From NCBI RefSeq assembly GCF_963921235.1, contig NC_086097.1, forward strand, positions 82,524,001 to 82,588,000: DNA of 64,000 bases, given 5' to 3'. Each line of letters begins with the position of its first letter. Position 1 is the stretch's first letter. The position numbers were made by a program, and so were the translations under genes. Origin of the DNA: Mobula hypostoma. Its lineage: Eukaryota. Shown here one piece after another: positions 3,531-37,580 of the stretch. Below the pieces are notes generated by a model. It had not been told where the DNA came from. It saw only the letters and a program-made list of their open reading frames with translations, and ran no database searches.

Positions 3531-5960
3531 CCCCACTGAACTCACTCGTGTCTGCACACCTCGACTCTATTTTACCCCTCTTGGTTCAGTCCCTTCCTAC
3601 CTACATCCATGACACTTCACCACTCTCAATCTTTTCAATGACTTTATGTTCCCTTCCCCCGATTGTCTCATTTTCACTATTGATGTCCCGTATCTATTCA
3701 CTTCTATCCCCCATAAGGAAGGCTAGAAAGCCCTCTCCTTTCTGGACAACAGATCCCCTCTAGCACCACTCTTTTCTGACTGGCGGAACTGGTCCTCATC
3801 CTCAACAATTTCAACTTTGGCTCCACCCACTTTCTTCAAACCCAAGGTGTAGCCATGGCCTCTCAATGGGTCCCAGCTATGCCTGTCTTTTCCTCGATTA
3901 CATGGAACAATCCATGTTCCAAAGCTAACCAGCATTGCTCTCCAACTCTTCCTACACTAAATTGACAACTGCATTGGTGCTGTTTCCTGCACCCAAACTG
4001 AGCTCGTCAATTCCATCAACCTGCCACAAATTTACTCGGTCCATTTATGACACTCTCTTCTCTTTCTGGATCTCTATGTCTCCACCTCTGGAGACACTCG
4101 ATCTACTGTTATTTTTTAGAAACTCCTTTGGACTACCTAAAATTTCCAGTAATCTCTCCCCTTCAGCCCGTAGAATGATTGCATTTCTTACTTTAATGGC
4201 GAAAAGATGTATCTTACAACATTGGAAAGAGCTTAATGCTCCAACTACCTTTTTTTGGTTTTCTCAGACGATATTATGCTTGAATTTGGAGAAAATTAGA
4301 AGCAATCTTTATGACTCCTCATTTAAATTTGAACAGACTTGGAGATCTTTTATTCAATATTTTCATTTAATGTAATATATACCCTTCTTGTTTTTTTTCA
4401 CTGTTTTTAATGGAGGTCGGGATTGAGGACGTGATTTTAAGTTTAACTCTGTTTGGTTTCAAGTTAGCCCATTGCTTTGCGTTGCTTTAGTTAGTTGCAC
4501 GGTGGGGTTTTTTTTGGGGTTTTTTTTCTTTTTCTCCATTGATATATATATAAAATTAGTATACTATTATGTTACCTTGGTATGTTATGCTTAAATTACA
4601 TTGTAGTATTTTTTTTTGTATTAATATCTTCTGTAATTTTATTATATTCTAACAATGTATTAGTGTCTATATGGCTTACCTTTTTGTATACTTATTTAAT
4701 AAAAAGATTTAAAAGAAGAAGAAGAAACTAAGTGACTGTCACAGCTATGTTAACTATTCCTCTTCCCACCCTGTCACTTGTAAAAATGCATTCCCTTTTC
4801 TCAGTTTCTCTGTCTCCGCCGCATCTGCTGTCAGGATGAGGCTTTTCATTCCAGAAAAACTGAGATGTCCTTCCTCAAAAAAAGGGGTTTCCTTTCCTCC
4901 ACCATCAAGGCTGCCCTCATCTGCATCTCTTCTATTTCCTGCATATGTGGCCTCACCCCATCCTCCACCGCCACATCAGGGATAGGGTTCCTCTTGTACT
5001 CCCCTACCACTCCACAAGACTTCATGTCTGAATATACAAACGTTTGTAATTCTCCATAAATTCTGCCATCTCCAATGGAATCCCACCACCAAGCACATCT
5101 TTCCCTCTCCTCCCCTACGTGACTCCCTTGTCCACTCGTCCCTCCCCACTGATCTCCCTCCTGGTACTTATCCTTGCAAGCAGAACAAGTGCCATACCTC
5201 CCACCACAGCTCCCCCCTCACCAGCATTCAGGGCCTCAAGCAGTCCTATCAGGTAAGGCGACACGTCACATGTGAGTCTATTAGGGTCATCTACTGTATC
5301 CAGTGCTCTCGGTGCGGCCTCCTGTATATTGGGGAGTCCCGACGTCATAGATTGGGAGACCACTTACCCGAGCACCTTTGTTTCATCTAACAGAAACAGT
5401 GGGATCTCCTGGTGGTCACCCATTTCAACTCTACTCCCCATTCTGATTACGACATTTCAGTCCATGGCCTCTTCTACTGCCGAAATGAGGCTGCAGTAGG
5501 TTGGAAGAACAACACTTTATATTCCGTCTGGATAGCCTCCAACTTGATGGCATGAACGTTGATTTCTCGAACTTCCACGAATCGCCCTCCCCCCGCCCCA
5601 CTTTCACAATTCATCTTTCTTGTTTCCCTCACACACCTTATCACCTTACCTGTCCATCACCTCCCTCTGGTGCTTCTCCCACTTCCCTTTCCTGCATTGT
5701 CTTCTGTCCTCTTCTTGTCAGATTCCCCTTTCTCCAGCCCTTTAACCAATCAACTTCCCAACTCCTTATTTCATCCTAACCCCCCCTCTCTGGATTTCAT
5801 CTATCACCTGCCACCTTGTACTTCTTCTTCCCCTCCCCCCACCTTCTTATTCTGATTTCTTCCCCCTTCCTTTCCAGGCTTGATGAAGGGTCTTGGCCCG
5901 AAACGTTGACTGTTTTATTCCCATTCATAGATGCTGCCTGACCTTCTGACATCCAGCACA
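3530..5960 (+). mobile_element. Degraded Penelope-like element (RT + GIY-YIG), interrupted by an L1 fragment
   Basis: Colinear with the better-preserved copy at 6066-8030 (PLLVQSLPTYIHDT; EEQHFIFRLDSLQLDGMNVDFSNF); terminal repeat with degenerate hammerhead at about 5876-5912. Confidence 0.85.
4125..4722 (+). mobile_element. 5'-truncated L1-clade LINE (ORF2 C-terminus, 3'UTR, A-rich tail)
   Basis: AFLTLMAKRCILQHWKELNAPTTFFWFSQTILCLNLEKIR...TWRSF resembles L1 ORF2 C-termini; AATAAA followed by an (AAG)n tail; agaaact duplicated at 4118-4124 and 4723-4729. Confidence 0.8.
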
Positions 5961-6065
5961 TTGTATCTCTTACATCTGGCTCAGCGTTTAAATCAGCTAA
6001 ATATCAACTTCTTTTCCTCTCTCCGGCCTGAAATTTCATATACTTAAACACAGGTCTTTTTGGAG

Positions 6066-8030
6066 TTACACACACAAAATGCTGATGGAATGCAGAAGGC
6101 CAGGCAGCATCTATAGGAAGAGGTACAGTCGACATTTCGGGCCAAGACCCTTCGTCAGGACTAACTGAAAGAAGAGCTAGTAAGAGATTTGAAAGTGGGA
6201 GGGGGAGGGCAGAACCAAAATGATAGGAGAAGACAGGAGGGGGAGGGATGGAGCTAAGAGCTGGACAGTTGATTGTCAAGGATATACAAGGCTGGAGAAG
6301 GGAGAGGATCGTGGGACGGGAGGCCTAGGGAGAAAGAAAAGGAGAGGGGAGCATCAGAAGATATAGTGAGAGGGACAGAGGGAGAAAAAAGAGACAGAAA
6401 GAAAGGGGAAAAATAAAAAATAATAAATAAATCAATAAAGGATGGGGTAAGAAGGGGAGGAGGGGTATTAACGGAAGTTAGAGAAATCAATGTTCATGCC
6501 ATCAGGTTGGAGGCTACCCAGATGGAATATAAGGTGTTGTTCCTCCATCCTGGGTGTGGCTTCATCTTGACAATAGAGAAGGCCGTGGATAGACATATCA
6601 GAATGGGAATGGGACGTGGAATTGAAATGTGTGGCCGCTGGGAGATCCTGCTTTCTCTGGCGGACAGAGCGTAGGTGTTTAGCGAAACGGTCTCCCAGCC
6701 TGTTTCGGGTCTCACCAACATATAGAAGGCTGCATAGGGAGCACCGGACACAGTATATCACCCCAGCCAACTCACAGGTGAAGTATCGCCTCACCTGGAA
6801 GGACTGTCTGGGGCCCTGAATGGTGGTGAGGGAGAAAGTGTAAGGGCATGTGTAGCACTTGTTCTGCTTATAAGCATAAGTGGCGGGAGGGAGATTGGTG
6901 GGAAAGGATGGGGGGATGAATGGACAAGGGAGGCGCGTAGGGAGCGATCCCTGCGGAAAGTAGAACGGGGGGGTGGAGGGAAAGATGTGTTTAGTGGTGG
7001 GATAATATTGGAGTTGGCGGAAGTTACGGAGAATAATATGTTTGACCCGGAGGCTGGTGGGGTGGTAGGTGAGGACAAGGGGAACCTTATCCCTAGTGGG
7101 GCGGCGGGAGGATGGGGTGAGAGTAGGTGTGCATGAAATGGGAGAGCTGCGTTTGAGAGCAGAGTTGATGGTGGAGGAAGGGAAGCCACTTTCTTTAAAA
7201 AAGGAAGACATGTCCTTCATCCTGGAATACAAAGCCTCATCCTGAGAGCAGATGCGGTGGAGACGGAGGAATCGCGAGAAGGGGTTGGCAGTTTTGCAAT
7301 AGATAGTGTGGGAAGAGGAACAGGTCCAGGTAGCTGTGAGAGTCCGTAGGCTTACAGTAGACATCAGTAGATAAGCTGTCTCCAGAGAGAGACAGAAAGG
7401 TCAAGAAAGGGGAGGGAGGCGCCGGAAATGGACCAGGTAAATTTGAGGGCAGGGTGAAAGTTGGAGGCAAAGTTAATGAAGTCAACGAGCTCAGCATGCG
7501 TGCAGGAAGCAGCACCAATGCAGTCCTCGATGTAGCGAAGGAAAAGTGGGGGACGGATACCAGTATAGACTTGGAACATGGATTGTTCCACAAAGCCAAC
7601 AAAAAAGTAGGCATAGCTAGGACCCATACGGGTGCCCATAGCTACACCTTTAGTTTGGAGGAAGTGGGAGGAGCCAAAGGAGAAATTATTAAGGGTAAGG
7701 ACTGATTCCGCTAGATGGAGCAGAGTGGTGGTAGACGGGAGCTGGTTAGGTCTGGAATCCAAAAAGAAGCGGAGAGCTTTGGGACCTTCCTGGTGGGGGA
7801 TGGAGGTATATAGGGACTGGACATCTATGGTGAATATAAAGCGGTGGGGGCCAGGGAACTTAAAATCATTGAAAAAATTCAGAGCGTGAGAAGTGTCACG
7901 AACATAGGTGGGAAGGGATTGAACAAGGAGGGGATAAAGCAGTGTCGAGGTATGCAGAAACGAGTTCAGTGGGGCAGGAGCAAGCTGAGACAATGGGTCT
8001 ACCTGGACAGGCAGGTTTGTCCAGGCTGCA
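6066..8030 (-). mobile_element. Penelope-like element, 5'-truncated, frameshifted RT + GIY-YIG endonuclease and terminal repeat
   Basis: ORF 7364-8038 has PLE RT motifs (IDVQSLYTSIP, QTKGVAMGTRMGPSYA, FLRYIEDC, LPFLDL); ORF 6468-7364 has GVIYCVRCSLCSLLYVGETRNRLGDRF (GIY-YIG). Confidence 0.92.
6127..6162 (-). ncRNA. Minimal type I hammerhead ribozyme motif in PLE terminal repeat
   Basis: Minus strand reads AGUC-CUGACGA-A-GGGU-CUUG-GCCC-GAAAUGUC-GACU: both core boxes, helix II, and helix I AGUC/GACU are present. Confidence 0.75.
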
Positions 8031-8419
8031 AGATCCAAAAGGAGTTACAGGGTAGCCAGTAGCAGGGGAACCTGCTGCATGTCTACAGAATAGGCATGGC
8101 ACTGTCCCAGAAGAGATCGTCAGTCTTAATGCCCAAAACGTCAACAATTGCCCCGCCCACCGAATGCTGCTCAACCTGCTGAATTCCTCCGACAGTTTCT
8201 TTTCACCCCATCACCAATTCATTTTGCTTCTGTGTCCTTCCGAGGGTTCAACAATCACCTGCAATGTCTGTGTTCACAGCTTCGCAGCAGCTATTGTTTC
8301 AGCTCCAGGGTGCCAGAAACACAGTGCCTTTGGCACTTCTCAGTCAATTTGTGACTGCAGAAGGATAGTTCTCCTGACTGAGGGGCCCCTAATTTGAGAA
8401 TGAGGCAGTTCTATGCTTC

Positions 8420-9062
8420 GAATTAAAACCCCATCCTATTACGGCAATCTTTGGATTGCCAATGGTAGAACATAGATCTTTGTCTTCTTCAGCCTGTCGA
8501 ATGATAGCTTTTGTTACTTTAATGGCGAGAAGATCTATTTTGTTGAACTGGAAGGAAACTAATCCTCCAACTACATTCCAATGGTTTTCTCAAACCATAT
8601 TAAGTGTAAGTTTAGAAAAAACTAGAAGTGATATTTTTGACCCTTCAGTTAAATTTGAAGAAACTTGGAAACCTTTTATGCAACATTTTCATATGATGTA
8701 ATCTGACCTTTCCAAAATTTTTTTTCTAAACTTGAATTATATGATGAGAGGAGCGGAGTTAACGACATTATTGAATGTGTCCGATACAAGCTGTTGGTCT
8801 AGCCCTGTTTTGTTTTTTTCCTTGGGGTTTTTGTTTCTTTTTTTCTTTTCGGGCTTTTTTTGTTTATATATTTTTTACTTTTTATTTCTTTTTTAATGTT
8901 TAATCTCATTATGAGTTTGGAAGTCTTTTATATCTATGTCACTTAAAATTCATTTTATATATGCTGATGAACATTTTTCCAATCTCTTTGTACCAACTTT
9001 GTTATTGAGTTTATAATTTTGAAAAATTAATAAAAAGATTTAAAAAGAAAGAAAGAAAGAGA
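8420..9062 (+). mobile_element. 5'-truncated L1-clade LINE 3' end
   Basis: ORF 8456-8701 is homologous to the 4125-4722 copy (AFVTLMARRSILLNWKE...LEKTR...TWKPF); AATAAA and (AAAG)n tail. Confidence 0.8.
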
Positions 9063-9376: not shown

Positions 9377-9480
9377 TACATTTACAATGCTTCCTTTGTA
9401 TTCACCACTGTCACACTTCCCTCTTCACACCCACATGACAGACATCAAGTGACACCCAAATTCCGAGTGTAATCAGCATT

Positions 9481-10511
9481 TAAAAATGCAAACATGAGGA
9501 AATCTGCAGATGCTGGAAATTCAAGCAACACACACAAAAAATGCTGGTGAACGCAGCAGGCCAGGCAGCATCTATAGGAAGAGGTACAGTCGACGTTTTG
9601 GGTCGAGATCCTTTGTCAGGACTCACTGAAAGAAGAGATAGGAAGAGTTTTGAAAGTGGAAGGGGGAGGGGGAGATCCGAAATGCTAGGAGAAGACAGGA
9701 GGGGGAGGGATGGAGCCAAGAGCTGGAAAGGGATACGAGACTGGAAAAGACAGACAGTCCTTCCAGGTGAGGCGACACTTCACCTGTGAGTTGGCTGGGG
9801 TGATATACTGTGTGCGGTGCTCCCGGTGCGGCCTTCTATATATTGACAAGACCCAATGCAGGCTGAGAGTCTGTTTCGCTAAACACCTATGCTCTGTCCG
9901 CCAGAGAAAGCAGGATCTCCCAGTGGCCACACATTTTAGTTCCACGTCCCATTCCCATTCTGATATGTCTATCCACAGCCTCCTCTACTGTCAAGACGAA
10001 GCCACACTCAGGTTGGAGGAACAACACCTTATATTCTGTCTGGGTAGACTCCAACCTGATGGCATGAACATTGACTTCTCTAACTTCCGTTAATGCCCCT
10101 CCTCCCCTTCGTACTCCATCCCTTATTTATTTATTTCCCCCCCCCCTTTTTTTCTCTCTCTCTTTTTTCTCCCTCTGCCCCTCTCACTATAACTCTTTGC
10201 CAGCTCTCCATCCTCTGGGCTCCCCTCCCCCTTTCTTTCTCCCTAGGCCTCCCATCCCATGATCCTCTCCCTTCTCCAGCCTCGTATCCCTTTTCCCAAT
10301 CAACTTTCCAGCTTTTAGCTCCAACCCTCCTCCTCCTGTCTTCTCCTATCATTTCGGATCTCCCCTTCCCCCTCCCACTTTCAAATCTCTTACCATCTTT
10401 TCTTTCAGTTAGTCCTGACGAAGGGTCTTGGCTCGAAACGTCAGCTGTACCTCTTCCTATAGATGCTGCCTGGCCTGCTGCGTTCACCAGCATTTTTTGT
10501 GTGTGCTAATT
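9481..10511 (+). mobile_element. Truncated Penelope-like insertion with inverted terminal repeat copy at its left end
   Basis: 9490-9745 is a terminal repeat in reverse orientation; 9750-10093 encodes the GIY-YIG C-terminus; terminal repeat to about 10505; taatcagcatt duplicated at 9470-9480 and 10512-10522. Confidence 0.88.
10411..10446 (+). ncRNA. Minimal hammerhead ribozyme motif, catalytic core intact
   Basis: AGUC-CUGACGA-A-GGGU-CUUG-GCUC-GAAACGUC-AGCU; helix I partly mismatched. Confidence 0.7.
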
Positions 10512-10569
10512 TAATCAGCATTGTCTGGCCTTCCAGTTAACTGTGGTTCACGCGTTTCAGCAACCCATT

Positions 10570-11290: not shown

Positions 11291-13559
11291 GATTTGATGG
11301 AGGCAGACGTGAGAGCATGGAGGAACATCTGGTGGAACTTCTGAAATGCCTGCTTCGCTGCCACCACTACTGTGTGATCCAAAATCTCCGGAGGGGAAGG
11401 CCCTGAATCCTTGGCTTTGCCTGTTGCTTGGCGGTCAGGGCCGGGGTCAAAGCGCTCGGCAGAGATGGTGCTCGGCACTCGGTGTTGGAGGACTGGTCGG
11501 AGGCTCAAATTTTTCGGACAGACTCAGAGTCGGACTGTGGTTGGTTGCTTCCAGGATGCTGCATCGGCAAGCTTGCTGTGCTGGAAGCTCATGGCAGGAA
11601 GAGTTTCTTCCTTCTACCGTCTGCGTGAGATGTTGGGGCTATCGGGACTTTGAGACTTTTTTTTACCCTGCCCATGGTCTGCTCTTATCAAATTATGGTA
11701 TTGCTTTGCACTGTTGTAACTATATGTTATAATTATGTGGTTTTTGTCAGCTTTAGTTTTGGTCTGTCTTGTGTTTCTGTGATATCATACCGGAGGAACA
11801 TTGTATCATCTTTTAATGCATGCATTTCTAAATGACAATAAACGAGGACTGAGTGTCCTCATAATCTGGAAAAAAAAGGTTGGATTGCTCTGGGTGCCGA
11901 AAGGAGAAATCGGGGCCTGGCAGAGAAGATTCAGTGCCTGTACAACTGGCCCGGGTATGAGGTTAGATCACTCTGGGTGCTGAGTTGACTTGAAGAGCTT
12001 GAGAGTGGCTTCGGGCTGGACAACAAAATCTGGGCCCGAAGCGAGTCGCTAGGCAGTGTGGTCTAGATCTGGAGCCTTTCGATGCAGTGGTACCTGGGTC
12101 CTAGTGTGAGGTGCAATATGTTGTTTAGACAATTTAAATATCAGCCCAGACCAGAGGAGATAGTCGATTTTGGTTGCTCTTGGTGACCTTCACTCCTCTG
12201 TCCAGGGCGCTGGAGCCTTTCACTGTTCCACTGTTTGGTCAATTTAAAAGCCAGCCTAGGTGGACTGAGAAGACAGGGTCTCGGTTGGGACGAGAGCCGA
12301 TCTTGTTCGTTCTCCGCAATAGTCAGCACCATGGCAACGAGGCTATGAAGATTGCCCCAGCTGCTATGCTCTATGCCTGCTGATATGATGAATTGATATG
12401 CAAGGCTCTGGGCCTACTCCGGGCTGCTCCAGGGTTTGGATCTGAGGACTCAATGGTTTAGAATGCTGTTGCTCACTTCAATTGTTCGCATGATTTTTAT
12501 TTTTTTCTTTCTTTTGCACTTTTGGTCTTTTAATTTATTTTTATTCTTTTTTTATTAAATTGGGTTCTTTTGGGCTTCTTGCTTTGTGGCTAACAGTGAG
12601 CAAGCAAATCTGAAGGTTATATAATTTATGCATTCTTTGATAATAAATGTACTTGAAATACTGGAGGATTAATACACACACAAAATATTTTCTGAAAATA
12701 TTTTATTAATATTTATTGAAAGCGTGCAGAGAAGACAGATGAGAGTAATGGCAGGACTAGAGGGTAAAGGTTATAGGGAGAGGTTGGGCAGGCTTGTACT
12801 TTAATCCTTGGAAAATAGGAGACTGAGAAATGTTTAAGTTAATGGGGCATAAATAGTTTGAATGCACTCAGTCTTTTTTTCCCAGGGAAGGCTGAGATAC
12901 AAAGAGAGAGCTAAAAGTTTTAAAAGGGACATGAGGGGCAACTTCTCCATGCAGAGTGGGGTGTATATATGATGCCTCAAGAGAAAAAGTGGTTGAGCTC
13001 CCTTTAAAAGGCTTTTGAGTAAGTATATGGAACAGAAAGGTTTGGAGAGATATGTGCCAAACATGGGCAAATGGGGCTAGCTTGGTGGGTGCCATGTTCA
13101 GCATGGACCAGTTGGTGTGGTGGGCCTGTTACAACTCTAGAACTATGTAAAGAAGACATATAGAGCCAAGGCAACATTTTCACTGTGTGGAGACATGAGA
13201 GGCTGCAGATGCTGGAAATATAGAGCAACATACAATGAAGGTGGGGGGACTTGGTCAGCATCTATAGTGTGAAATGGCAAGTCGATATTTCATCTGGACT
13301 GGAAGGAAAGACAAGATAGAGCCAATATGAGAAAGGTTTGGGTGGGGGGGGGGAGGAGTGGAAGAGTACTTACTTCACCGAGGCAGTCAGTTCTGGTTAA
13401 TACCACACAAAACAATATATTTACAACACAGGGAAAAGTTAGTCACATGATACACAATAGCCACAAAAGTTAGAGTCAGGGTTGTCTCTGATTCTCACAC
13501 GCGACTGATACGGTATGGTACAGTGCCATTCTCACCTCTGCATTGGCAGATTCAAATGT

Positions 13560-19470: not shown

Positions 19471-19852
19471 GGAACCAGAGATGAATTACCAAGGATTATT
19501 TTCAGATCAGTTCCAAAATTAAAAATTGTAGTTAGTATGGAACAAAAACTGAAATTACTGGAAACACTCAGCAGGTTGGCCAGCATGTTCAGAAGGATAA
19601 GCAGTTAAGATTTCATGTTTGTAAGTCTTGGTCAGAACTGTACTAAAATGCACAGTAATTTGATGAAGGATCCCATACCTAAAAATTAACTGATTTTCCT
19701 TCCACAGATGTTGCCTGATATCTTGAGTGTTTCTAGCATTTTCTGTTTTCATTTCAGTTTTAAAACATCTGCAGGTTTATATTTTTCTTTTATTGGCATT
19801 GGGCTTTCACTCTTGTAACTCAGTGGTATTTTGATGTGCTTCCCTTCCACAG

Positions 19853-24170: not shown

Positions 24171-24939
24171 AGTTCCTTTTAGAAGCCACAATTAACTGAT
24201 TTTATCAAAAAGAAATAAAAACTGAATTAAAAACATCCCTGATCAGAAACAAAAATAAAAGCCAAAAAGTTCAAGCCTTTGACGTAACAGCCTAAATTTT
24301 GCCCTCACCACCCAGCACATGGTGACCTAGGACGATTCAGAAATGTCATATTTTCTGGCGGACAAGACCTATTTTGTGTTGCAACAGTGATGTTATTGAA
24401 CAGGCTGAGTAATCTGTCATACTGATGATTCTTTATATCACAAACCAGAAAGTAATTTTGGAAACATTTTACAGAGAGAAAAACAAGTACAAGTCAGATA
24501 CTGTATGAAAGATCAATGTCAAAAGTGAAAAGACAGAACTACTTAAAATTCATGAATAACAAATGCTCAAAATGCTGGAAGAATTCAGCAAGTCAGGCAG
24601 CATCCATGAAGAGAAATAAACATTCAACATTTTGGGCTGAGATCCTCTTCAAGGTTTACATTTTTTGGAATTTTTAAAGTAATTATTCAAGGAAATTACA
24701 ATCTGCACATTTGAAATTACTTTATGGTTGGATACATTGTTAAGCAGTAATAAAGTCCTAGTACACCTTTCAAAATCAAGTTACATCTTATTCAACAAAA
24801 CATAACATTTTTATTATTTTTCATAACAGGAAAATTATGTAAGCATTTGTTGCTGATGATGTCCACTGACTTTTGTAGGCTAACTGTGAAAGTACTGCAG
24901 CTTCACACAGTATAAAGGAACAGGGAACCTTGACAACAT

Positions 24940-26060
24940 AAGAAAGGGGCTTCCCCTCCTCCACCATCAACTCTCATCTCAAACGCATCTCCCCCATTTC
25001 ACGCACATCTGCTCTCACTCCATCCTCCCGCCACCCCACTAGGAATACGGTTCCCCCTTGTCCTCACCTACCACCCCACCAGCCTCCCGGTCCAACATAT
25101 AATTCTCCGTAACTTCTGCCACTTCCAACGGGATCCCACCACTAAGCACATCTTTCCCTCCCCCCCCACCCCCGCTTTCCGCAGGGATCGCTCCCTACGT
25201 GACTCCCTTGTCCATTTGTCCCCACCATCCCTCCCCACTGATCTCCCTCCCGGCACTTATCCTTGTAAGCGGAACAAGTGCTACACATGCCCTTACACTT
25301 CCTCCCTTACCACCATTCAGGGCCCCAGACAGTCCTTCCAGGTGAGGTGACACTTCACTTGTGAGTCGGCTGGGGTGATATACTGCATCCGGTGCTCCCG
25401 ATGCAGCCTTCTATATATTGGCGAGACCCGACGCAGGCTGGGAGACCGTTTCACTGAACACCTAGACTCTGTCCGTCAGAGAAAGCAGGATCTCCCAGTG
25501 GCCACACATTTTAATTCCACATCCCATTCACATTCTCATATGTCTATCCTCGGCCTCCTCTACTGTCAAGATGAAGCCACACTCAGGTTGGAGGAACAAT
25601 GCCTTATATTCCGTCTGGGTAGCCTCCAACCTGATGGCATGAACATTGACTTCTTTAACTTCCGTTAATGTCCCACCTCCCCTTTGTACCCCATCTGTTA
25701 TTTATTTATTATATATATAATTTTTCTCTCTCTCTCTTTTTCTCCCTCTATCCCTCTGACTATACTCCTTGCCCAACCTCTGCGATTCCCCCCTCCCCCT
25801 TTCTTTCTCCCTGGGCCTCCTGTCCCATGATTCTTTCATATGCCTTTTGCCAATCAACTTTCCAGCTCTTGGCTTCATCCCTCCCCCTCCTGTCTTCTCC
25901 TATCATTTTGGATCTCCCCCTCCCCCTCCCACTTTCAAATCTCTTACTATCTCTTCTTTCAGTTAGTCCTGACGAAGGGTCTCGGCCCAAAACGTCAACT
26001 GTACCTCTTCCTAGAGGTGCTGCCTGGTCTGCTGCGTTCACCAGCATTTTGTGTGTGTTG
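24940..26060 (+). mobile_element. Penelope-like element 3' part (GIY-YIG + terminal repeat)
   Basis: ORF 25375-25668 IYCIRCSRCSLLYIGETRRRLGDRF; hammerhead-like motif at 25965-26000 with GAAA mutated to AAAA. Confidence 0.9.
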
Positions 26061-28925
26061 CATCTATTTCTAAAGAACAGGATCTTGAATGTTTTTTTAA
26101 TCTGTACCTTAACATTTCCTGTCACCATCAAATACTGTATATACAACAAATCTTATATTCGCAGCAGCTAACCATTATAGCATATAATCTCTGCTATCAA
26201 TCTCTGCTTTAAATACACTCAATGACCTGACCGCTACAACAACCTGTGCCAATGGATTCCACAAATTCACCACCCTCGGGCTAAAGAAATTCCTTCTTAT
26301 CTCTGTTCTAAATTACAGCATTACATCCTTGCTTTTATATTCTAGTCCTTTTGAAATGAACGCTAACATTGCATTTGCCTTCCTTATCACCGACTCAACC
26401 TGCAAGTTAACCTTTAGTCCTGCACGAGGACTCCCAAGTGCCCTTGAACCTTGGAGTTTTGAATTTTCTCCCAGTTTCGAAAATAGTCCATCCTTTTTAT
26501 TTCTTCTACCATAGTGCATGACTATGACATTCCTTCTATTTGCCACTCCTTTGTCCTTTCTAATAACCTAAGTCCTTCTGCAGCCTCCCTGCTTCCCCAA
26601 CACTACCTGCCCCTCCACCTACCTTTGTATTGTCTGCAAACTTAGCCACCAAGCACTCAATTCCATCATCCAAATCACTGACATATAATGTGAAAAGAAG
26701 CAGTCCCAACACCGACCCCTGTGGAACACCACTAGTCGCAGGCAGCCAATTAGAAAAGGGTCCCTTTATTCCCACTCTTTGCCTCCTGCCTCCTGCCAAT
26801 CAGCCAATGCTTTATCCATGCTGGTACCCTTCTTATAGTTCCATGGGCTCTTATCATGCTAAGCAGCCTCATATGTGGCACTTTGTCAAAGGCCTTTTGA
26901 AAATCCAAGTACACAATATCCACCAATTCTCCTTTGTCTATCCTGCTTGTTATTTCCTCAAATAATTCTAGCAGATTTGTCATGGAAGATGTTCCTTAAG
27001 AAAACCATGCTTACTTTGGCCTATCTTATCATGTAGCTCCAAGTATCTTGAAACCTCATCCTTAACAATTAACTCCAACACTTTCTGAACCACTGAGGTC
27101 AGGCTAACTAGCCTATAATTTCCTTTCTTCTGCCTTCCTCCTTTCTTGACGAGGGGAGAGACATTTGCAATTTTTCAATCCTCTGGAACCATGCCAGAAT
27201 CTAGTGATTCTTGAAAGATCATTATTAATGCCTCCACAATCTCTTCAGCTACCTCTTTCAGAACCCTCGGTGTACGCTAACTGGTTGTCCAGGTGATCTA
27301 ACTACCTTCAAACCTTTCAGCTTCTCAAGCACCTTCTCCCTAGTTATAGCAACTGCACTCATTTCTGCCCCTTGTCATTCTTGAACTTCCAGCATACTAC
27401 CATTGTCTTCCACAGTGAAGACTGATGCAAAATACTTATTCAGTTCATGTACCATTTCTTTGCTCCCCATTACTACCTCGCCACTATTATTTTTGAGTGG
27501 TCCAATATCTACTCTCACCTCTCTTTTACTCTTGATATATCTGAAAAAAAAACTTTTTGTATCCTCTTTGATATTATTGTCTAGCTTAACTTCATATTTC
27601 TTCTTTTCACTGCTTATGGATTTTTAGTTGCCTTCTTTTGGTTTTTAAAAACTTCCTAATCCACTAACTTCCCATTACTTTTTGCTCTATTATTCCCTCT
27701 CTTTTGCTTTTATGTTAGCTTTGATTTCCCTTGTCAGCCACAGTGGTGTCATGCTGTTTTTAGAATACTTCATCTTTGGGATGTATCTGTCCTGCACCTT
27801 CTGAGTAGCTCCCAGAAGCTCAAGCCCATTGCTACTCTTACCATCATCCCTGCTAGTGTCCCTCTCCAGTCAACTTTGGTTAACTCTCCTCTCATGCCTC
27901 TGTCTCTGTAATTACCTTTACTCCATGGTAATACGGATACATCTGACTTCAGCTTCTCCTTCTCAAATTACAGGGTGAATTCTATCATATTATGATCACT
28001 TACTCCTAAGGGTTCCTTTATCTTAAGCTCCTTAATCAAATCCAGGTCACTACACAACAATCAGTCCAGAATAGCTGACCCCCGTAGTGGGCTCAACCAC
28101 AAACTGCTCTAAAAAGCAGTCTCATAGGCATTCTGCAAATTCTCTCTCGAGATCAAAAATCTGCGCCAACCATATTTTCCCAATCTACCTACATATAGAA
28201 ATGCCCTTTTGACATGCATTTTCTATCCTTTGTTGTAACTTTGTAGCCCACATCCTGACGCTGTTTGGAGGCCTGTATGTAACTCCCATCAGGGTCTTTT
28301 TAGCCTGGAAGTTCCTTTGCTCTATCCACAACAATTCTACATCTTGCGATCCCATGTCACCTCTTTGTAATGACGTGCTTTCACTTTTTAACCAACAGAA
28401 CCACGCCAAACCCTCTGCCTACCTGCCTGTCCTTTTGATACAATGCATATCCTTGGATGTTAAGCTTCCAGCTATAATCTTCTTTCAACCACAACTCAGT
28501 GATGTGCAAAACATCATACCTGCTAATCTCTAACTGCAATAAAAGATCATCTACCTTATTTTGTATACTGCATGCATTCAAATATACCATTTGGTATGGG
28601 GGGGTGGGAAAGTTACTACACAGGACTGAAATAAGCTGCAGAGGTTTATAAATTTAGTCAGCTCCATCACGGGCCCTAGCCTTTGTAGTATCCAGGACAT
28701 CTTCAAGGAGCGTTTCCTCAAATAGGTAGCATCCATCATTAAGGACCTCCAGCACCCAGGACATGCCTTGTTCTCGTTGCTTCCTTCAGGAAGGAGGTAC
28801 AGAGGCCTGAATGCACGCACTCAATGAATCAGGAACTGCCATCCAATTTCTCCAATGAACTCATGAGCACTACCTTCCGAATGTTTTTTATTTTTGTTTT
28901 TGCACTACTTACATACACTACTATT

Positions 28926-28981: not shown

Positions 28982-30281
28982 TCTTACTGTGAATCAATTT
29001 TTTTATTATTATGTATTGCATTGTACTACTGCAGCAAAGACAACCAATCTCACAACATATGCTGGTGATATTAAACCTGTTTCTGGTACTGATGACACCT
29101 TCAGTCCTGTATTCATCACCCTTGTTGATTTGGTCCCCATTACACTGCAACTCAATACACTGACTTGCAATTTTTCACTATCATCTGCCTGTCCTTCCTG
29201 ACAGTCTCACTACACACTGGCTCTGCATGTACTGTATATCAACTGCCTCATCCTCAACCTTATTAGTCAGTTTTCTGTCCTCCTGCCAACTTATTTTAAT
29301 CCCCCCGCCCCCCAACAGTTCTAGCAAACCTGTCTGCAAGGTTATTGGTCTCCCTTGGGTTCAATGTAACCTATCCCTTTTGTACAGGTCATACCCTCCT
29401 TACTGGAGATCCTAATGATCCAGAAATCTATAAATTTGCCCCCTGCACCAGTTCCTCAACCACACATTCATCTGCCAGATCATCCTATTCTTATCCTCAC
29501 TGGCATGTAGCACAGGAAGCAATGCAGAGATTGCCACCCTGGAGATCCTGCTTTTCAGCTTTCTCCTTCACTCCCTAAATTCTCCCTTCAAGTCCTCCTT
29601 CATTTTCCTACCTATATCATTGGTGCCAATATATAACAAGACTTCTGGCTGCTCATCTGGACCCATCAGAATGCAGAGGACCTGATCCAAGTTGTCCCTG
29701 ACCCTGGCACCTGGGAGACAACAGACCAGGTATCTCTATCATGTGCACAGAATCTCGTGTCAGCTCCTCTGACTATGGAATCCCCTATCACTGCTGCAGT
29801 TCTCTTCTCCTCCCTTCCCTTCTGAGCCACAATGAGAGACTCAGTGCCAGAGACCTGGTTGCTGGAGCTTCCCCCTGTTAAGTCATCACCCTCCCACCAA
29901 CATAATCCAAAGTGGTGTACTTATTATTGTGGGGAACGACCACAGTAGTACTCTGCAATGGCTGCCCATTTCCTTTCCCTCTCCTGACAGTCACCCAGAT
30001 ACCTACCTCCTACAATTTAGGGGAGACCACCTCCCTGTAGCTCTTATCTGTCATCTCCTCAGTTTCCTGTATGAGCCAGAAGTCGTTGAGCTACAGCTCC
30101 CATTCCTTAACATGTTCTCTGAAGAGATGCAGCTCAGTGCGCCTAGTGCAGATGTGGTTATCCAGGAGGCTGGATGTCTCCCAGAATTCCCACATCTCAC
30201 ACATCGAGCACAACGCTACCCCTGGAACCATCTTCATGCACTAACTATGTACTACAGGAAGAATGAAGAAGAAAATTACCA

Positions 30282-30446
30282 AACAACAGGAATACTGCAG
30301 ATGCTGGAAATTCAAGCAACACACATCAAAGTTGCTGGTGAATGTAGCAGGCCAGGCAGCATCTCTAGGAAGAGGTACAGTCGACGTTTCAGGCTGAGAC
30401 CCTGACTAAGTGTCTCGGCCTGAAACATCGACTGTACCTCTTCCTA
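30282..30446. mobile_element. Short fold-back PLE terminal-repeat insertion
   Basis: 30362-30400 is the reverse complement of 30412-30450 (3 mismatches in 39 nt); aagaaaattacca duplicated at 30269-30281 and 30447-30459. Confidence 0.88.
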
Positions 30447-31369
30447 AAGAAAATTACCAGATACTTATCTTGCTCAAGCCTGTTCTTGAGCCAAAACTTT
30501 CCCACTCCAACACTTGTCCACTCACACAATGGCCGCTGTACTTGTCCCTGTCTTATTTTCACTTGCCCTCGCTAATGAATCATAACTTGATTGGGCCACC
30601 AAAAAATGCCAAAAGCCTTCAAATATTCCTCTTTAAATCTCACTCACAGACCTGTGAGTTGCTTCTCCTCTTGCTCCTTTTTGTCTAATCAAAAATTTCA
30701 ATTATTATTTGAGCATGATTTTGCCTTAATGCTGACTTTCCTTATTAATTCATGTTTATCTATTAATTTTCTACCAGATTGTTGCTTCTAGTAACTTTGC
30801 ACTGAAAAAGCTTTAATTGGATGGTTTGTAGTTGCTGAATTTTTACTTGCATTCTTTTTGAACATGAGCCGGATATTCTCCTGTCCTCTGGAACCACTCA
30901 AAGGTCTAATTAATTTCAATGCTTCTAATATGCTCATTAATAGGCTAATGATGACTGGAAGATTTTGCCTAATACCTTCCTGTTTTTCATTTTTACAGTG
31001 CCTTAGTCATTTTCAAAGAATTCTACCCAGCTTTATCTACTTCTAGGGCAGAAAGCCTTTTTAGTACAGTACATTTGCTTCATAATTTTAGAGCGTATCC
31101 ACTATCTTTATTATCTCTTTCGCTGTAACTTGGACAGCAATTTCCTCCTTTGTAAGGACAAATGCAAATTCGCTCTGCTTGCACTAGTAAGAATTAATTA
31201 TCAACTGTGCTTTCAGTTCCATACAAATCAGCTTATGTCCAGATTGATAACATTTGTTCAAACAGTCAACATAAGGTGAGGCTTTGGATGCAAACCCAGT
31301 CTAACATGCAATGCAGCACTTACATCAACAGTACTGAAGAGCTTCAAGATATGGTATGACTCAACCTTA

Positions 31370-32400: not shown

Positions 32401-33117
32401 TTTGAATTTAGTTTAATTCTTCTGCAGAGTTGACACATTTTTAGCTGCAGCTCAGAAATCCGAGAAGTGAAGGGATACCTGAGCATGTACTTCAGTTACC
32501 AATCTAATTTTTGCTGGTGATTTACATTCGGTTTGGTTTACTCTCAGTAGATACAATGACTGGTGTTGAAAACTGGTGTAGGAAGAGTTCTTCACTCAGT
32601 CATAAAGACAATACAATCTTTAATAACAACACATCAGAGTTGCTGGTGAACGCAGCAGACCAGGCAGCATCTCTAGGAAGAGGTACAGGCGACGTTTCAG
32701 GCTGAGACACTTGGTCAGGACTAACCGGAAGAAGAGCTAGTAAGAGATTTATAAGATAGTTAATGTTTCAGAGGCAGAACCCAACAGCAAAATCAATTAT
32801 TTTAGTTTAATTGAGGAATATCCATTTAATCACCATTTCCTAAGTGAGCTTTTCAGATTTTGTTGTGTCGCAAACGGTAGTACAGTTGCAGAGCTCAACA
32901 TCGCAGGTTCAGTGCCAGTTGCCTACGCTCAATCTCGACCTCGGGTGCTGTCCGCGTGGAAGTTTGCACGAGCTCCCCGTGACGCCACGGGACCCAGTGC
33001 TCCAGTCTCTTCCCGCATTCGGGTTAATTGGTCACTCTACTGCCCTTGAGTATGTAGGTGAGTGGTAGAATTAATAGGGAATTGATGAGAATATGGGAAG
33101 AACAAAATATAGTATCG

Positions 33118-33555
33118 CAAACACGAGAAAATCTGCAGATGCTGGAAATCCAAAGCAACACGCACAAAATGCTGGAGGAACTCAGCAGGTCAGGCAACAT
33201 CTATGGAAAAGAGCAAACGGCTGACGTTTCAGGCCGAGACCCTTCATCAGGACTGGAAAGGAAGTCAGGAGAAGAAGATGGGGGAAGGGAGGAAAAACAA
33301 GGTGGTGGGTGATAGATGAAACCTGGAGGGGGGAGGAGTGAAGTAAAGAGCTGGGAAGTTGGATGGTGAAAGACATATAGGGCTGGAAAAGGGGGCATCT
33401 GATAGGGGAGGACGGAAGTCCATGAAAGAAAGGGAAATGGGGGGGGGGAGCTCCAGAGGGAGGTGAGGTGACGGGCGTGTGGAGATAAGGTGGGAGAGGG
33501 AAACAGGATGGGGAACGGAGGGCAATTACTGGAAGTTCGAGCAATCGTTGTTCAA
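33118..33555 (-). mobile_element. PLE 3' terminal fragment carrying an intact-core hammerhead motif
   Basis: Same terminal-repeat family as 5560-5960; purine-rich tract plus terminal ...gcagatgctggaaat... motif. Confidence 0.8.
33219..33254 (-). ncRNA. Minimal hammerhead ribozyme motif, catalytic core intact
   Basis: Minus strand AGUC-CUGAUGA-A-GGGU-CUCG-GCCU-GAAACGUC-AGCC. Confidence 0.7.
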
Positions 33556-34884
33556 AACATAGCTTATGTGGGATCAGCTGCAGGTAGTATGCACGGTCTG
33601 TTTCCATGCTATGCAACTTTATGACTCCAAGGAAACTAACCAGTTCATCGAGTCCATGCCGGCTCTCAGCATTCCACCTCCGCCACTTAATTTCACTCTA
33701 ACAAATGTCTATCAGCTTCCGTCATGCACAGATGGGACAAAAGCTGACACTGGCTGAGGGAGTACTGTGAAGATTTATTATTTACATTTGATCAATCTGT
33801 TAGAGAAATTCATACGAGTTGAACCAGCACAAAGGAATAACTAAAGTGTTGGAAATGTGTCCGAATAGCGAGTTCAAAGTAAATTTATTATCCAACTACA
33901 TATAAATCACCGTATACAACGTTAAGATTAATTTTCTTGTGGACATTCAGTTAATACAAAAGAAAGACGATAGAAACAATGAAAATCGATTCTTTTACAG
34001 GCCAAAGTTACTGATTTCAAAAGATTCAAAGTACAGTTATTATCGAAGTGTATATGCAATATGCAACCCTGAGATTCGTCTTGCCGCAGACAGCCACAAA
34101 CACATGGAACCCGTTCGGAGAAAACATCAAACGCACAACGCGCACAAGGAAGAACAAATCGCGAAAATGACAAAAAAGACCGAAAAACAGAGTATAAAAA
34201 AGCAAACCATTGAAACAGTCTAGGAATGTTCATAAAGTTTAATTCAGCTCAATTTGTATGTCAGCTCTGTGTTCTCTCTCCGCCTGACGTGGTATTGCCT
34301 GATTTATTTCAGATTTTCCAATTTTCCAACTGCTGAGCTTTGGATCTTATGTAGTCTCCTCTCTGCCTCATTCATTGACCACGTTTAATTTTCTATTAGC
34401 TGTACAACCTCCTTCTGCTAGCTTTTGTTGTCCTCCACTTCTCAGTACCTCTAAAACTTAACTTTTGTGTAGTCATTGTGAAATACTGTATCATCAATGC
34501 GAATTGTTCGTGATTTCCCAGTCGACGGATGCTGCCTGGCCCGCTGTTTCCGGAGCAATGAATATTTGTTTCTTTTAACTTATCGTTACTGCTGTAAGAT
34601 TCCTTTAATAGAAAAATATTCTTTTTTTTCCCTCTCTCACTCTCACTTGGTACTCTGCATTATGCTATATTGCCCAACGGAAAAAGCAGGTTATTAAAAG
34701 TTCTTCTCAAAGAAAAAACTACCCCACCCAGCACAAGCAGAAACCAACAGATTAGTCCTTCAGAAATAACGCTGGAGTTGTCTGCGCTCCACCCTCCGCT
34801 CAGTTGTGGGATGGATAACTGCCAAGTATTCATTGGGTGCGGGGTCCGTTTCCTGCTGTTGAACAGGATTAGGTGCAGGGCTCT

Positions 34885-34931
34885 TTTATGCAAAGTCATT
34901 GCAGCGTAGTCAGAATCCTTTGTTGTGATAA
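34885..34931 (+). promoter_or_regulatory. GPX2 proximal promoter motif cluster (two ARE cores, TCF/SOX-like, GATA)
   Basis: TGCAAAGTCAT 34889-34899 (reverse ATGACTTTGCA = RTGACnnnGCA); GCGTAGTCA 34904-34912 (reverse TGACTACGC); CTTTGTT 34918-34924; TGATAA 34926-34931; 70-115 nt upstream of the ATG. Confidence 0.6.
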
Positions 34932-35002
34932 TCGGCAGAAATCCACACCTTACGAGTTGAGTAGGCTGTGAGTACCTCATTCCCTCTCAGTCGGCGCACA
35001 CC

Positions 35003-35224
35003 ATGGCTCAGATAGTCAAGTCCTTCTACGATCTCAGTGCTGTCACCTTGGGCGGCGAGAAAGTGGACTTTAATATCTACAGAGGTAGGGTGGTGTTGAT
35101 CGAGAACGTCGCTTCTCTCTGAGGCACGACCACGAGGGATTTCACCCAGCTCAACGAGTTGCAGATTCGCTATCCGCACCGCTTCGTTGTACTGGGCTTC
35201 CCTTGTAACCAGTTCGGTTTCCAG
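35003..35224 (+). CDS. GPX2: Glutathione peroxidase 2 (selenoprotein), coding exon 1; TGA at 35120-35122 = Sec40
   Basis: accATGg Kozak; [74 protein letters not shown]; donor CAG|gtaaat. Missed by the ORF track because of the in-frame TGA. Confidence 0.97.
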
Positions 35225-37580
35225 GTAAATGGAAAGTTGCGGCTGGCCACAACTTTTGTTTTGCGTCCCTTTTAGTTTCGGAACTCGACGAGGTGTGAAT
35301 ATGTGTAAAATTCGGGGTGTAAAATTGTGGGCCGACAACGTGGAGACACAGCGAAACTAAACGAGTTCAGGTCCTCCACATCACTTAAAAGCTCCTGTGT
35401 GCTCTAATTCATGCACTTTTTTATTCCTTAACTCACTTCATAATCTTCCCAAATATCACAGATTTGAAATTAAGAAATATTCAGCATTAATTGCGTGAGG
35501 GAGTTTTAAACTTTTACTGCTCTCTACATGTGGAAAGATGGCCAAACTAGTTTTTCGCGTGTGCCGTCTAGTTCTATGTAACCAAAGTAGGAAACTACTA
35601 TCAATGTACTTTGATATTTTGAAAACTTGTTTACCTTTTCTGGAAGGTTCGGCTGGAACCAAAACTATTCACGTAGCGGTGGGGGTGGGGGACGTGCCTT
35701 TCGGCCCGTTGGGTCTGCGCCGACTATCAACCGACCATTTTAACCCGAGTAACAAAATAACTTTTTTTTCTCCAGTCTTGCCGAAGGGTCTCGGCCCAAA
35801 ACGTTGACTCTACTCTTCTCCATAGATTATGCCTGCCCTGCTGAGTGTCTCCAGCATTTCTGGAGATTTCCTCTTGTTTGTAACAAAATAACGTTCAGCT
35901 CTTCACAGTTTCCACCCTTGACCACGGTCACGTCGCATCTCACAGTGGTAATTTGCCCACCTACTTGTATATCTTTTGAGATGTGGGTAGAAACTAGCAG
36001 CTGAACCAGCAATACTGATCTGGGCTTTGAAGCGATATGGGGTAATTTATGTCCCGTTTACAAGGTTTAAACCCCAACATTAAATTGGTCTGTTTTCTCT
36101 TTCTACGTCTGCTACATCACTTGCTCAGATTTTCCAGCGTTCCTCCGTTTTTATTCAATTCGCCTTACTGCATTATTTCTTGATAGTCTGACATTTTATG
36201 ATCGGTGAATAGTAAAACAAGTTTCTGAATCATCATTGCCGTCCGCTTTCAACGTTTGCAAAGAACCTGTTCAGAACGTTACTGTAAATTCTTGCCTTGA
36301 ATTTCTTTGTTCGGTCACCTGGCCTTTACTGAAGGCCGTGTAATGCGTTGGATTTTAGTTATTTTTTTAAAAATCAAGAAATAAGTTTTTTTTCGTGCTT
36401 TTTTTCCATAGAGTAATTTTTGTGAGGCAGAAATTATGATAGCATTGATGTATATTGTGCTGCTGATGCTCTCCACAAATCATGGATTTATTGAAAGCCC
36501 TTGTTCGGAAATCCACCCCTGCTATTCTAACACATTTTCAGGTCATCATGAAGTTCTGTTGAAATTTTGAAGTCAGAAAATAGGCATTGTGGAGTCCCAT
36601 TGGTTTGTGAAAGTTTTTTTTTGTGGTTTGCAGTCAAAAGTTAAGTCAGCAAGATTAATCGGGTCTGGTGGAATAATCTTATTTACATCTTTAAAATGAA
36701 ATGAACGCTTAACAGATAAATTTGTTAAACATTGGTGAATATTCAGTAGGATATTTTGCACTTCGAACTTTCCACTTATCAAATATTCATAAAAGGTCCT
36801 GTAAGTTTTTTTCCACGTCTACTGTGCTGGCTTATGCCTATCACTTTGTATCTTTAGATTTCATCAAAAAAGTTTCAGCTAAAAATGACAGGAAGTAATT
36901 TCTTCCCATGACCTTCGCTGTATTTTAATCAGTTTTAATGGATTTTATCTTGAAGGTTTAGTTTGATAGCCATTAGCAAACAATGTTTTGGTCAGAAAAA
37001 AGTTTCAAAGAATTATTATTGCATTTTCAGCAGAGAAAGTTATTGGCAAAAAGATTTAAGATACATCACCTCTGCTTCAACTCTTGAATCTGAGTTTTGA
37101 AAGTGCTTTATAATTTTAAGTTATTGTTGAAATTAATCATTTGAAAATTCCAAAGGGGATAAAACTTTATAACATATTTGGAAGGTACAACTTTTATATT
37201 AAAAAAGTCAACATATCTTATAGTCTGTAGGCTGGGAGTAGCATGTATACAGACATTTTGTGCTTCCTGTTCATACCAAGTTAAGCATAATCTAGTTATT
37301 GAGCTGTAAGACTACCTGTGGTAGTTTATTTGACACGTATAACAAGTATTTTGGCCTATAAATTAATGATAACAATTGCAGTATCATTGCTTGTACTGAA
37401 AAGTTAATCTTTGGTTTGTTGGACAAGATGTGCAATCAATTATGCCTTTTTATAGTGTTTGTTGTTTGAGACAGTAAAACTTGTCTCATACAGTCAGTAT
37501 ATTTTCCTTCAACAACACAAAAATTTCCAGTTTGTTTCTATGGTTTAGTTTAACCTTTTATGTCTTTAAACATTTTTTAG

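Follow-up and report, generated by a model that had tools for sequence, protein, structure and literature searches.

The 64,000-nucleotide stretch of Mobula hypostoma DNA analyzed here (the window) carries a short hammerhead-like motif at nine sites listed in a preliminary description, which raises the question of what these repeats are, which element left them and whether they are ribozymes where they now lie. The explanation that best accounts for the whole, and which we hold with high confidence, is that they are fossil 3' ends (pseudo-LTRs) of a Neptune/Nematis-type element with a minimal type I hammerhead.

All nine sites were found to bear a 36- to 38-nt motif on the strand originally given, and the consensus first proposed is the per-position majority of the nine copies, with C at core position 7. 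Using an nhmmer profile built from nine window copies, 20 termini were identified in the window, 11 of them beyond those cited, and these fall in 16 insertions; some of the uncited termini (39680-39860 and 47882-47966) lie outside the interval 5876-35810. The nine copies do not amount to nine insertions, as those at 9588 and 10411 are arms of a single insertion with a common 11-bp target duplication. The cited copies are:

6126..6163, minus strand: minimal hammerhead copy 6127, the sole copy with an intact core, helix I (5 pairs), helix II (4 pairs) and self-pairing 15.2/16.2 (U-G).
Between 6131 and 6130, minus strand: predicted cleavage site of copy 6127.
5875..5912, plus strand: hammerhead copy 5876, with C3U, U at 17 and a helix I mismatch.
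9587..9624, minus strand: hammerhead copy 9588, core broken (G8A, G12A).
10410..10447, plus strand: hammerhead copy 10411, core intact, first helix I pair a C-A mismatch.
22454..22491, plus strand: hammerhead copy 22456, a solo terminus with G12A and the helix III palindrome lost.
25964-26001, plus strand: hammerhead copy 25965, with G12A, in the element at 24936..26062.
32686..32723, minus strand: hammerhead copy 32686, with G8C and helix II broken.
33218..33255, minus strand: hammerhead copy 33219, core intact, two of five helix I pairs broken.
35773-35810, plus strand: hammerhead copy 35773, with C3U, A6C and G12A, in a GPX2 intron on the sense strand.

The CUGANGA, GAAA and NUH core is present in the majority sequence, and is intact in three of the nine cited copies and broken in six. 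The proposed identity as a minimal type I hammerhead was upheld by the match to the published consensus, CUGANGAH-helix II-GAAAN-palindrome-NUH. Across 13 copies, the extra base between positions 9 and 10.1 is invariably A (13/13), the 10.1-11.1 pair is G-C in nine and G-U in four, and the 15.2/16.2 palindrome, which has no loop 3, is C-G in seven, U-G in two and unpaired in four. The suggestion that helix III, a loopless palindrome, can form only between two copies is likewise supported. Both the majority sequence and copy 6127 have five pairs in helix I and four in helix II, while over the 13 copies 69% of helix I cells and 87% of helix II cells are paired. Of the three copies put forward for testing (6127, 10411 and 33219), the last two are mismatched (C-A) where helix I adjoins the cleavage site.

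It is highly improbable that the likeness to a hammerhead arose by chance in a repeated element end. A chance origin would be consistent with the absence of matches to Rfam hammerhead covariance models at E values up to 5 over the window and up to 10 over 6080-6200, with single-copy fold energies that are unremarkable (z -0.2 to -1.1) and with the absence of a covariation signal. However, the published consensus is reproduced in all 11 fixed core bases and in the NUH triplet, the two helices, the additional base and the palindrome, and the motif occupies the position in the element at which such hammerheads have been described. Furthermore, a full family-independent minimal-hammerhead descriptor matched only copy 6127 in the window and none of 60 dinucleotide shuffles; a gapped family pattern gave three matches in the window versus none in 100 shuffles.

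The suggested CpG decay was confirmed, as 24 of 90 bases at CpG sites differ from the majority compared with 17 of 234 other bases (Fisher p = 9e-6), and 23 of the 24 differences are CpG-type transitions. The accompanying statement that most inactivating changes are of this type is barely true (five of nine core-breaking changes). The 38-nt majority motif holds five CpGs, of which four fall in the core, in helix III or at the cleavage site, and motif variation in contigs of four public runs is almost solely at ten CpG positions. Covariation in helices I and II, proposed as a test, did not exceed that of shuffles in 13 window copies of one family (three double changes; 184 of 500 shuffles as high), and no compensatory pair at 5% or more was found in the public contigs. 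Its absence in the window is in line with expectation, as relics decaying from one master are not expected to covary.

The placement of the motif in Penelope termini was borne out by remnants of reverse transcriptase (RT) and GIY-YIG sequence upstream and by target duplications. Upstream of copy 6127, Pfam matches to RVT_1 (E 0.0085) and GIY-YIG (E 2e-4) fell below the curated cut-offs, and tblastn with long homologues gave a collinear match over 8027-6471 (E 3e-117) to a frameshift-broken ORF; tblastn remnants were also identified upstream of copies 5876, 10411 and 25965. The best homologues are ray and shark proteins, from Mobula, Chiloscyllium, Amblyraja and Hypanus (64 to 87% identity). 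A CX2-5CxxC linker with GIY-YIG pattern was found in 29 of the 35 homologues reaching the nuclease; in the window the linker is intact in the frame at 24934-25347, and one cysteine is lost in frames 6471 and 4986. In copies 6127, 10411, 25965 and 5876, some 300 nt separate the GIY-YIG stop from the motif that follows it. The sequence points to an endonuclease-bearing Penelope-like family as the probable host, of the Neptune/Nematis type by its linker, in a ray-like cartilaginous fish. The coding remnants are arranged as follows:

6062..8049, minus strand: 5'-truncated Penelope-like insertion with copy 6127, its 3' end without tail; in order, frameshifted RT (~8027-7377), linker, GIY-YIG ending at 6468, ~300 nt of 3' UTR and hammerhead.
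6062-6070 / 8041-8049: 9-bp direct repeat flanking this insertion, borderline in that 3 of 400 null pairs reach 9 bp.
~3511-4122 and 4731-5588, plus strand: ORF remnants of an older interrupted element ending in copy 5876.
24936..26062, plus strand: 5'-truncated element with an intact CX4CxxC linker and a GIY-YIG remnant.

Two further candidate features of the element found no support. An ORF start at an AUG 25 nt past the cleavage site is unsupported, as frames differ among the seven tail-bearing copies and no homologue N terminus matches, and a conserved 3' stem-loop between motif and tail was rejected, RNAalifold giving no consensus pairs with 16 copies. A metagenome pattern scan returned 48 loci, none of which matches the family profile, and a scan of viral contigs with a long homologue found no relative.

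Target duplications of 9 to 13 bp flank five of the 12 insertions tested and were absent from the other seven, and no microsatellite targeting was evident by inspection. The copies are 90 to 93% identical, and the family is sufficiently numerous and recent that clear target duplications are preserved at many insertions. Four head-to-head doublets were identified, every one of which (4/4) has a tail on one arm only; they are listed here with the tails, solo termini and remnants:

9470..10522, both strands: one insertion of two inverted arms meeting head to head, of which the minus arm (9485-9730) has a tail and the plus arm (9751-10508) has none.
9470-9480 / 10512-10522: 11-bp target duplication of this insertion (0/400 null pairs reach 11 bp).
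9485..9524, minus strand: optional 3' tail of ~35-40 nt, with a 10-nt palindrome at 9502-9511 and a predicted terminal hairpin.
~33116-33150, minus strand: tail of copy 33219.
30269..30459, both strands: uncited head-to-head doublet (the 30300 doublet) with a 13-bp target duplication; the truncation of each arm falls within the hammerhead, and only the minus arm has a tail.
39628..39870, both strands: uncited head-to-head doublet with a 9-bp exact target duplication (13/15); each arm starts at core position 7, and only the minus arm has a tail.
19541..19785, both strands: uncited old head-to-head doublet, degenerate tail on plus arm only, target duplication not found.
35749..35892, plus strand: 118-bp solo terminus with 13-bp target duplications (35749-35761 / 35880-35892).
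24555..24667, minus strand: uncited decayed terminus, core broken.
47882..47966, minus strand: uncited decayed terminus that retains CUGANGA and GAAA but lacks U16.1.
13199..13291, minus strand: uncited remnant, motif 3' half and tail.
8131..8198, plus strand: uncited remnant of an older terminus.
34519..34547, plus strand: uncited short remnant, weak (E 0.0018).

Rfam microRNA-family matches at 30374-30438 and 39702-39837 scored far below gathering scores and correspond to inverted doublets.

The doublets bear on a reading, which we consider unlikely, that the hammerhead and tail palindrome are mainly an RNA-RNA dimerization module, supplying a dimeric RT-endonuclease with two templates, one per cut strand, and thereby generating doublets. 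Six of the eight doublet arms end within ~20 nt of core C3, and helix II (-15.7 kcal/mol) and the tail palindrome (-14.9 kcal/mol) give the two strongest self-duplexes predicted for any window of the terminus. Of six strand-switch joints in public contigs, five have an end within the motif, at 9598-9623 (among the 15 of 50 joints listed), and extension on both target strands together with a predicted protein dimer (PMC11167929) can be taken in the same sense. However, the doublets were found by a hammerhead-centered profile, 5' truncation favors short copies, and a plain hairpin stall accounts for the same junction clustering. Joint positions could also be biased by several mismatches at 9599-9624 that are private to the reference copy; for the same reason, depth dips across the motif in public contigs were not read as truncation hot spots. 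The complete 10-nt tail palindrome is kept in just two of seven tails, and Naiads make the same inverted structures without hammerheads (PMC8557442). We likewise give little credence to a fuller version in which the dimer-only hammerhead is a dimerization and pause module first and a cutter second, with two uncut RNAs priming opposite strands of a staggered cut. In such a scheme, the RNAs, paired through the self-complementary hammerhead and the tail palindrome and loading a dimeric RT-endonuclease, would prime one from the tail end and one from the shorter end, and the two cDNAs would stall and join at the hammerhead; if true, it would explain the one-arm tail, the meeting of doublet arms at the motif (3/4 here) and insertion by a catalytically damaged sublineage.

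In the explanation preferred here, the source element would carry the hammerhead ~300 nt past the stop codon and 60 to 100 nt before the reverse-transcription start points. By analogy with relatives, a transcript spanning two motifs of a tandemly arranged source could form a double hammerhead with helices I and III in trans, and this would cut after GUC slowly and probably require the element's protein. The dimer step rests on relatives because the window contains no full-length, partial-tandem or tandem source copy. Reverse transcription of uncut RNA is envisaged, again by analogy, to begin further downstream, at one of two alternative sites that include or omit the tail; one-ended events would yield 5'-truncated solo termini, and priming from both target strands would yield head-to-head doublets. 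After insertion, the five CpGs of the motif would decay, killing the ribozyme.

In the predicted monomer, core G5-G8 is paired with 15.2-17 (P 0.99) in a closed rod, and the double hammerhead is predicted at -16.7 kcal/mol versus -25.8 kcal/mol for two closed monomers, in nearest-neighbor energies that exclude core tertiary contacts and Mg2+. The closed rod was considered as a conserved lock and rejected, as there is no covariation in the window and 12 of 41 loopless rows in Fig. S3 of Cervera and de la Pena could form it (hand count); it is treated as a family property rather than a conserved device. The cleavage site coincides with the start of none of the 20 termini. Given this and the modeled fold of the consensus, cleavage is probably dependent on help from protein and may be dispensable.

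A rival reading is that the motif, although descended from a hammerhead, is dispensable for cutting in this family and persists as a passenger, neutral or parasitic, acting mainly as a stable hairpin that stalls the RT. We regard this as possible though doubtful. The insertions at 32686 and 30300 share eight derived sites, including helix II G10.2U and C11.1U, both lack G8, and their flanks are unrelated; a source with a damaged ribozyme thus appears to have inserted at least twice. The absence of termini starting at the cut site is in line with this reading, as is the finding that catalytic mutants insert normally in vitro, with no reads ending at the site (PMC11167929). Naiads also thrive without hammerheads, which may parasitize such elements (PMC8557442). 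On the other hand, the majority keeps a perfect core and its five CpGs in 38 nt, versus 1 to 3 per ~300 nt in 3' UTR copies, suggesting selection in the source lineage. Gene conversion between 32686 and 30300, neighbors 2.3 kb apart, may explain the shared sites, and G10.2U is rare in public contigs (~0.2% of summed depth in two runs), so that the damaged source may be small. The passenger reading is compatible with the preferred explanation for the window copies and differs from it on the role in the active element.

No adjacent same-strand copies were found in the window; same-strand termini lie 0.5 to 9 kb apart in separate insertions, with a smallest spacing of 532 bp. Because they are dispersed, mostly core-broken and lack an adjacent same-strand partner, the window copies are unlikely to be ribozymes in place and would be passengers without likely activity. 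That the host has recruited some copies, such as for cleavage of GPX2 pre-mRNA, is very hard to credit: GPX2 has a single intron, and copy 35773 does lie there in sense orientation, but it has three core changes and no second copy in that intron, and the sole intact copy, 6127, has its nearest same-strand neighbor 3.5 kb away and core-broken.

The finding extends by one ray family a class of motif known from across the metazoans since 2014, and nothing is changed in principle. The variant list of Lunse et al. 2017 may already contain this family. A search of the literature outside Repbase, Dfam and subscription journals gave no paper that treats this ray family or ascribes to RNA dimers a part in insertion. 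The practical use of the family is that its doublet junctions, tail asymmetry and damaged-core sublineages, counted across the genome, could address the role of the hammerhead in Penelope elements, whose benefit from it is stated as an open question if insertion needs no cleavage (PMC8557442, PMC11167929).

Among known systems, non-LTR retrozymes (bioRxiv 10.64898/2026.07.22.740005) similarly carry type I hammerheads related to Penelope pseudo-LTRs and are reported in one chondrichthyan. They are tandem arrays, whereas the ray termini are separate insertions, with no run of at least two consecutive complete-hammerhead units. Poseidon PAc of Anolis carolinensis (Frangieh et al. 2024, PMC11167929) shares a hammerhead upstream of two reverse-transcription starts that define an optional tail, and copies made from uncut RNA; its hammerhead cuts only with protein. 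Unlike the ray element, the Poseidon clade lacks the linker, and the PAc ORF starts inside the hammerhead, whereas ray tail-bearing copies share no frame from the downstream AUG. Neptune/Nematis elements (Craig et al. 2021, PMC8557442; PMC3846280) have in common with the ray element the RT, CX2-5CxxC linker and C-terminal GIY-YIG, as well as 5' truncation, an inverted 5' copy and a 30- to 40-bp tail at one end. The ray window differs in having no full-length or partial-tandem copy, in its clear 9- to 13-bp target duplications (5/12) and in showing no evident microsatellite targeting.

The closest comparison is with the minimal hammerheads of metazoan Penelope-like elements, which self-cleave as dimers and not as monomers. 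These were defined by the absence of helix III/loop 3 (Cervera and de la Pena 2014, PMC4209133), with a base between 9 and 10.1 and palindromic 15.2-16.2 as conserved traits and C-G at 15.2/16.2 in 29 of 41 loopless rows of Fig. S3 (hand count). The loopless ACGU helix III and extra A, initially regarded as a notable variant, are therefore both already in that consensus. Some differences remain, as no cartilaginous fish is among the 56 rows of Fig. S3, the 4-bp ray helix II is at the short end of the range, and the published families show covariation whereas the ray window copies do not. The type I layout, CUGANGA with extra base, G10.1-C11.1, GAAA, loopless palindromic 15.2/16.2, short helix I, U-rich 5' flank and pseudo-LTR place are all shared, together with mass solo copies from truncated elements and nearby opposite-strand pairs, and the Neptune row of Acropora digitifera comes close to the ray motif in layout, with the same 4-bp helix II. 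Thus, the ray motif belongs to a known class, to which a ray family is added, and its assignment is correct but ordinary.

The 36- to 38-nt hammerhead motif was found on the strand assigned in the preliminary description at each of its nine sites [5876(+), 6127(-), 9588(-), 10411(+), 22456(+), 25965(+), 32686(-), 33219(-), and 35773(+)], which aligned without gaps over 38 columns, and the consensus proposed there is the majority sequence of these copies. With a profile derived from nine segments of the window, 20 termini (motif-bearing 3' ends of Penelope-like elements) were identified in the window; by our reading of matches and head-to-head inverted doublets, they represent 16 insertions, and a terminus occurs approximately every 3.2 kb. 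A family-independent descriptor, requiring the core, the extra base, a helix II of 3 to 8 pairs, self-pairing 15.2/16.2, NUH, and at least 3 pairs in helix I, matched once in the window (copy 6127) and in none of 60 shuffles. Public data contain the family in abundance: 84,154 contigs in sequencing run X1 and 68,330 in X5 could be aligned to a 306-bp stretch, figures that do not equate to copy number. Hundreds of public contigs cross from the end of the optional 3' tail into unrelated flanks, including 872 and 480 in X1 at 9489/9490 (agreement, 0.39).

Nuclease remnants also lie upstream of copies 5876, 10411, and 25965, and Mobula (87%), Chiloscyllium, Amblyraja, Stegostoma, and Hypanus supplied the top matches of 64 homologues, pointing most probably to a ray as host. 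A CX2-5CxxC linker, which one window frame and 29 of the 35 homologues that reach the nuclease keep intact, is described as a mark of Neptune and Nematis in PMC8557442. The carrier is probably of the Neptune/Nematis type. An older Penelope ORF remnant (3511-5588) is split by approximately 600 bp at 4123-4730, within which 4161-4374 matches a repeat on the opposite strand at 8487-8700.

All 11 fixed core bases are kept in three of the nine copies (6127, 10411, and 33219). The helix I pair adjoining the cleavage site is a C-A mismatch in 10411 and 33219, leaving only 6127 fully formed. G8 or G12 was lost in five copies, and changes at these positions other than G8C also generally kill hammerhead activity. 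The two bases have been named general acid and base (PMC6155905), and G8C abolishes activity (PMC11167929). Each motif contains five CpGs, and bases departed from the majority at 24 of 90 CpG-site positions versus 17 of 234 elsewhere (P = 9e-6); the attribution of most inactivating changes to CpG decay held only narrowly, with five of nine core-breaking changes being of this type. Among the 40 of 42 variants listed for public contigs, at least 14 fall inside the motif: ten correspond to the ten CpG positions, three return private changes of the reference copy to the majority base, and the last, G10.2U, exceeds 5% in a single run only. Covariation in the helices did not rise above that of shuffles, the three double changes across 13 window copies being matched or exceeded in 184 of 500 shuffles. 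The window copies are relics.

Insertions 32686 (32686-32723, -) and 30300 (30315-30446) have eight derived sites in common, including two helix II sites; G8 is missing from both, and their flanks are unrelated. Their sequences suggest that a source with a damaged ribozyme still inserted, although G10.2U is rare among public contigs; gene conversion between neighbours possibly produced the shared sites instead.

A single head-to-head insertion, flanked by an 11-bp target duplication (reached by 0 of 400 random pairs), has copies 9588 and 10411 as its two arms. Three further doublets, absent from the preliminary description, are present:

30269-30459: doublet with a 13-bp target duplication
39628-39870: doublet with an exact 9-bp target duplication, reached by 3 of 400 random pairs
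19541-19785: doublet in which a target duplication was looked for and none was found

Target duplications were identified in 5 of 12 insertions examined, both 9-bp ones being borderline. In all four doublets an extra 35 to 40 nt is present on one arm and absent from the other; inverted 5' copies and an optional tail are known for Penelope elements (PMC8557442 and PMC3846280), and PMC11167929 connects the tail with two sites at which reverse transcription starts. Tails (9502-9511, the 33131-33140 region, and others) carry a 10-nt palindrome, its central 6 nt kept in five of seven, and terminate in a predicted hairpin. Among the variants listed for four public runs, none at or above 5% falls at 9503-9518. 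In the insertion of copy 35773 (35845-35879, +), approximately 27 to 30 nt are apparently missing between two CCAGCAT repeats, one before and one within the tail, a loss whose sequence suggests a template slip. Head-to-head junctions at 39762-39775 and 30395-30405 lie inside the hammerhead with a 1- to 3-nt overlap, the former making a short palindrome, and these doublets yield false microRNA-family matches in Rfam.

It is improbable that the hammerhead acts as a module for RNA dimerisation and pausing that shapes the doublets: six of eight doublet arms end within approximately 20 nt of the core, but ascertainment of doublets or simple hairpin stalling could account for this, and the same doublets occur in Naiads, which lack a hammerhead. 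Arms on opposite strands are unable to form a double hammerhead within one transcript, and termini on the same strand lie 0.5 to 9 kb apart. None of the 20 termini starts at the cleavage site; the window holds no full-length copy, so the element's 5' end is not represented.

Following the published scheme, the source element would have placed two motifs on one tandem transcript, allowing a double hammerhead in which helices I and III form in trans and cutting would be slow. Folding predicts a closed rod for the majority sequence, pairing G5-G8 with 15.2-17 (probability, 0.99; -12.9 kcal/mol). With tertiary contacts omitted, predicted energies were -16.7 kcal/mol for the double hammerhead, -25.8 for two rods, and -34.1 for an inactive extended duplex, values that agree with the low activity of minimal hammerhead dimers (PMC4209133) and with protein-assisted cutting (PMC11167929). 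The rod as a conserved lock was rejected, as only 12 of 41 loopless published rows (hand count) could form it and it shows no covariation in the window.

Copy 35773 lies in sense orientation within the GPX2 intron, with three core changes and no partner copy there. The closest solved match of this gene is glutathione peroxidase 2 (E = 9e-58), and a Pfam search of 150 of the 176 unmasked frames revealed no further gene. Other features of the window are as follows:

35003-35224 and 37581-37931 (+): GPX2 exons, with an in-frame TGA at codon 40 (35120-35122)
38648-38704 (+): weak SECIS match in the GPX2 3' region (17.2 bits, below the cut-off of 35)
40997-43028 (+), 45748-46320 (+), and 52411-56452 (-): LINE remnants, presumably CR1-like, with RVT_1 matches at 40997 and 41886 and a GDSL-lipase-like ORF1 piece at 55552-56097
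2974-3333 (-): LTR-retrotransposon remnant with a retroviral-type aspartyl protease match
43410-43982 (-): LTR-retrotransposon remnant without a Pfam match, which we take to be Bel/Pao-like
18644-18738: 95-bp self-palindrome, unrelated to the Penelope terminus
57614-58713: inverted repeat with 100-bp arms approximately 1 kb apart, likewise unrelated, perhaps a DNA-transposon remnant

The assignment to minimal type I hammerheads was right and the underlying observation sound. The loopless ACGU helix III and extra A, singled out as a notable variant, are both the standard published form: in Cervera and de la Pena (2014, PMC4209133), the lack of helix III and loop 3 defines the minimal hammerhead, and a base between 9 and 10.1 and a palindromic 15.2-16.2 are given as conserved traits, with C-G most frequent at 15.2/16.2 (by hand count, 29 of the 41 loopless rows). 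The same source reports the minimal hammerhead in fish Xena, Poseidon, and Neptune elements, thousands per genome, with opposite-strand motif pairs 100 to 700 bp apart, and Lunse et al., as cited in PMC6765202, claim in their title that such variants cleave as dimers. The finding adds to an already described class, and the flagged features are not new. Type I hammerhead retrozymes are described in one chondrichthyan in a 2026 preprint (10.64898/2026.07.22.740005); cartilaginous fish are absent from the 56 rows of PMC4209133.
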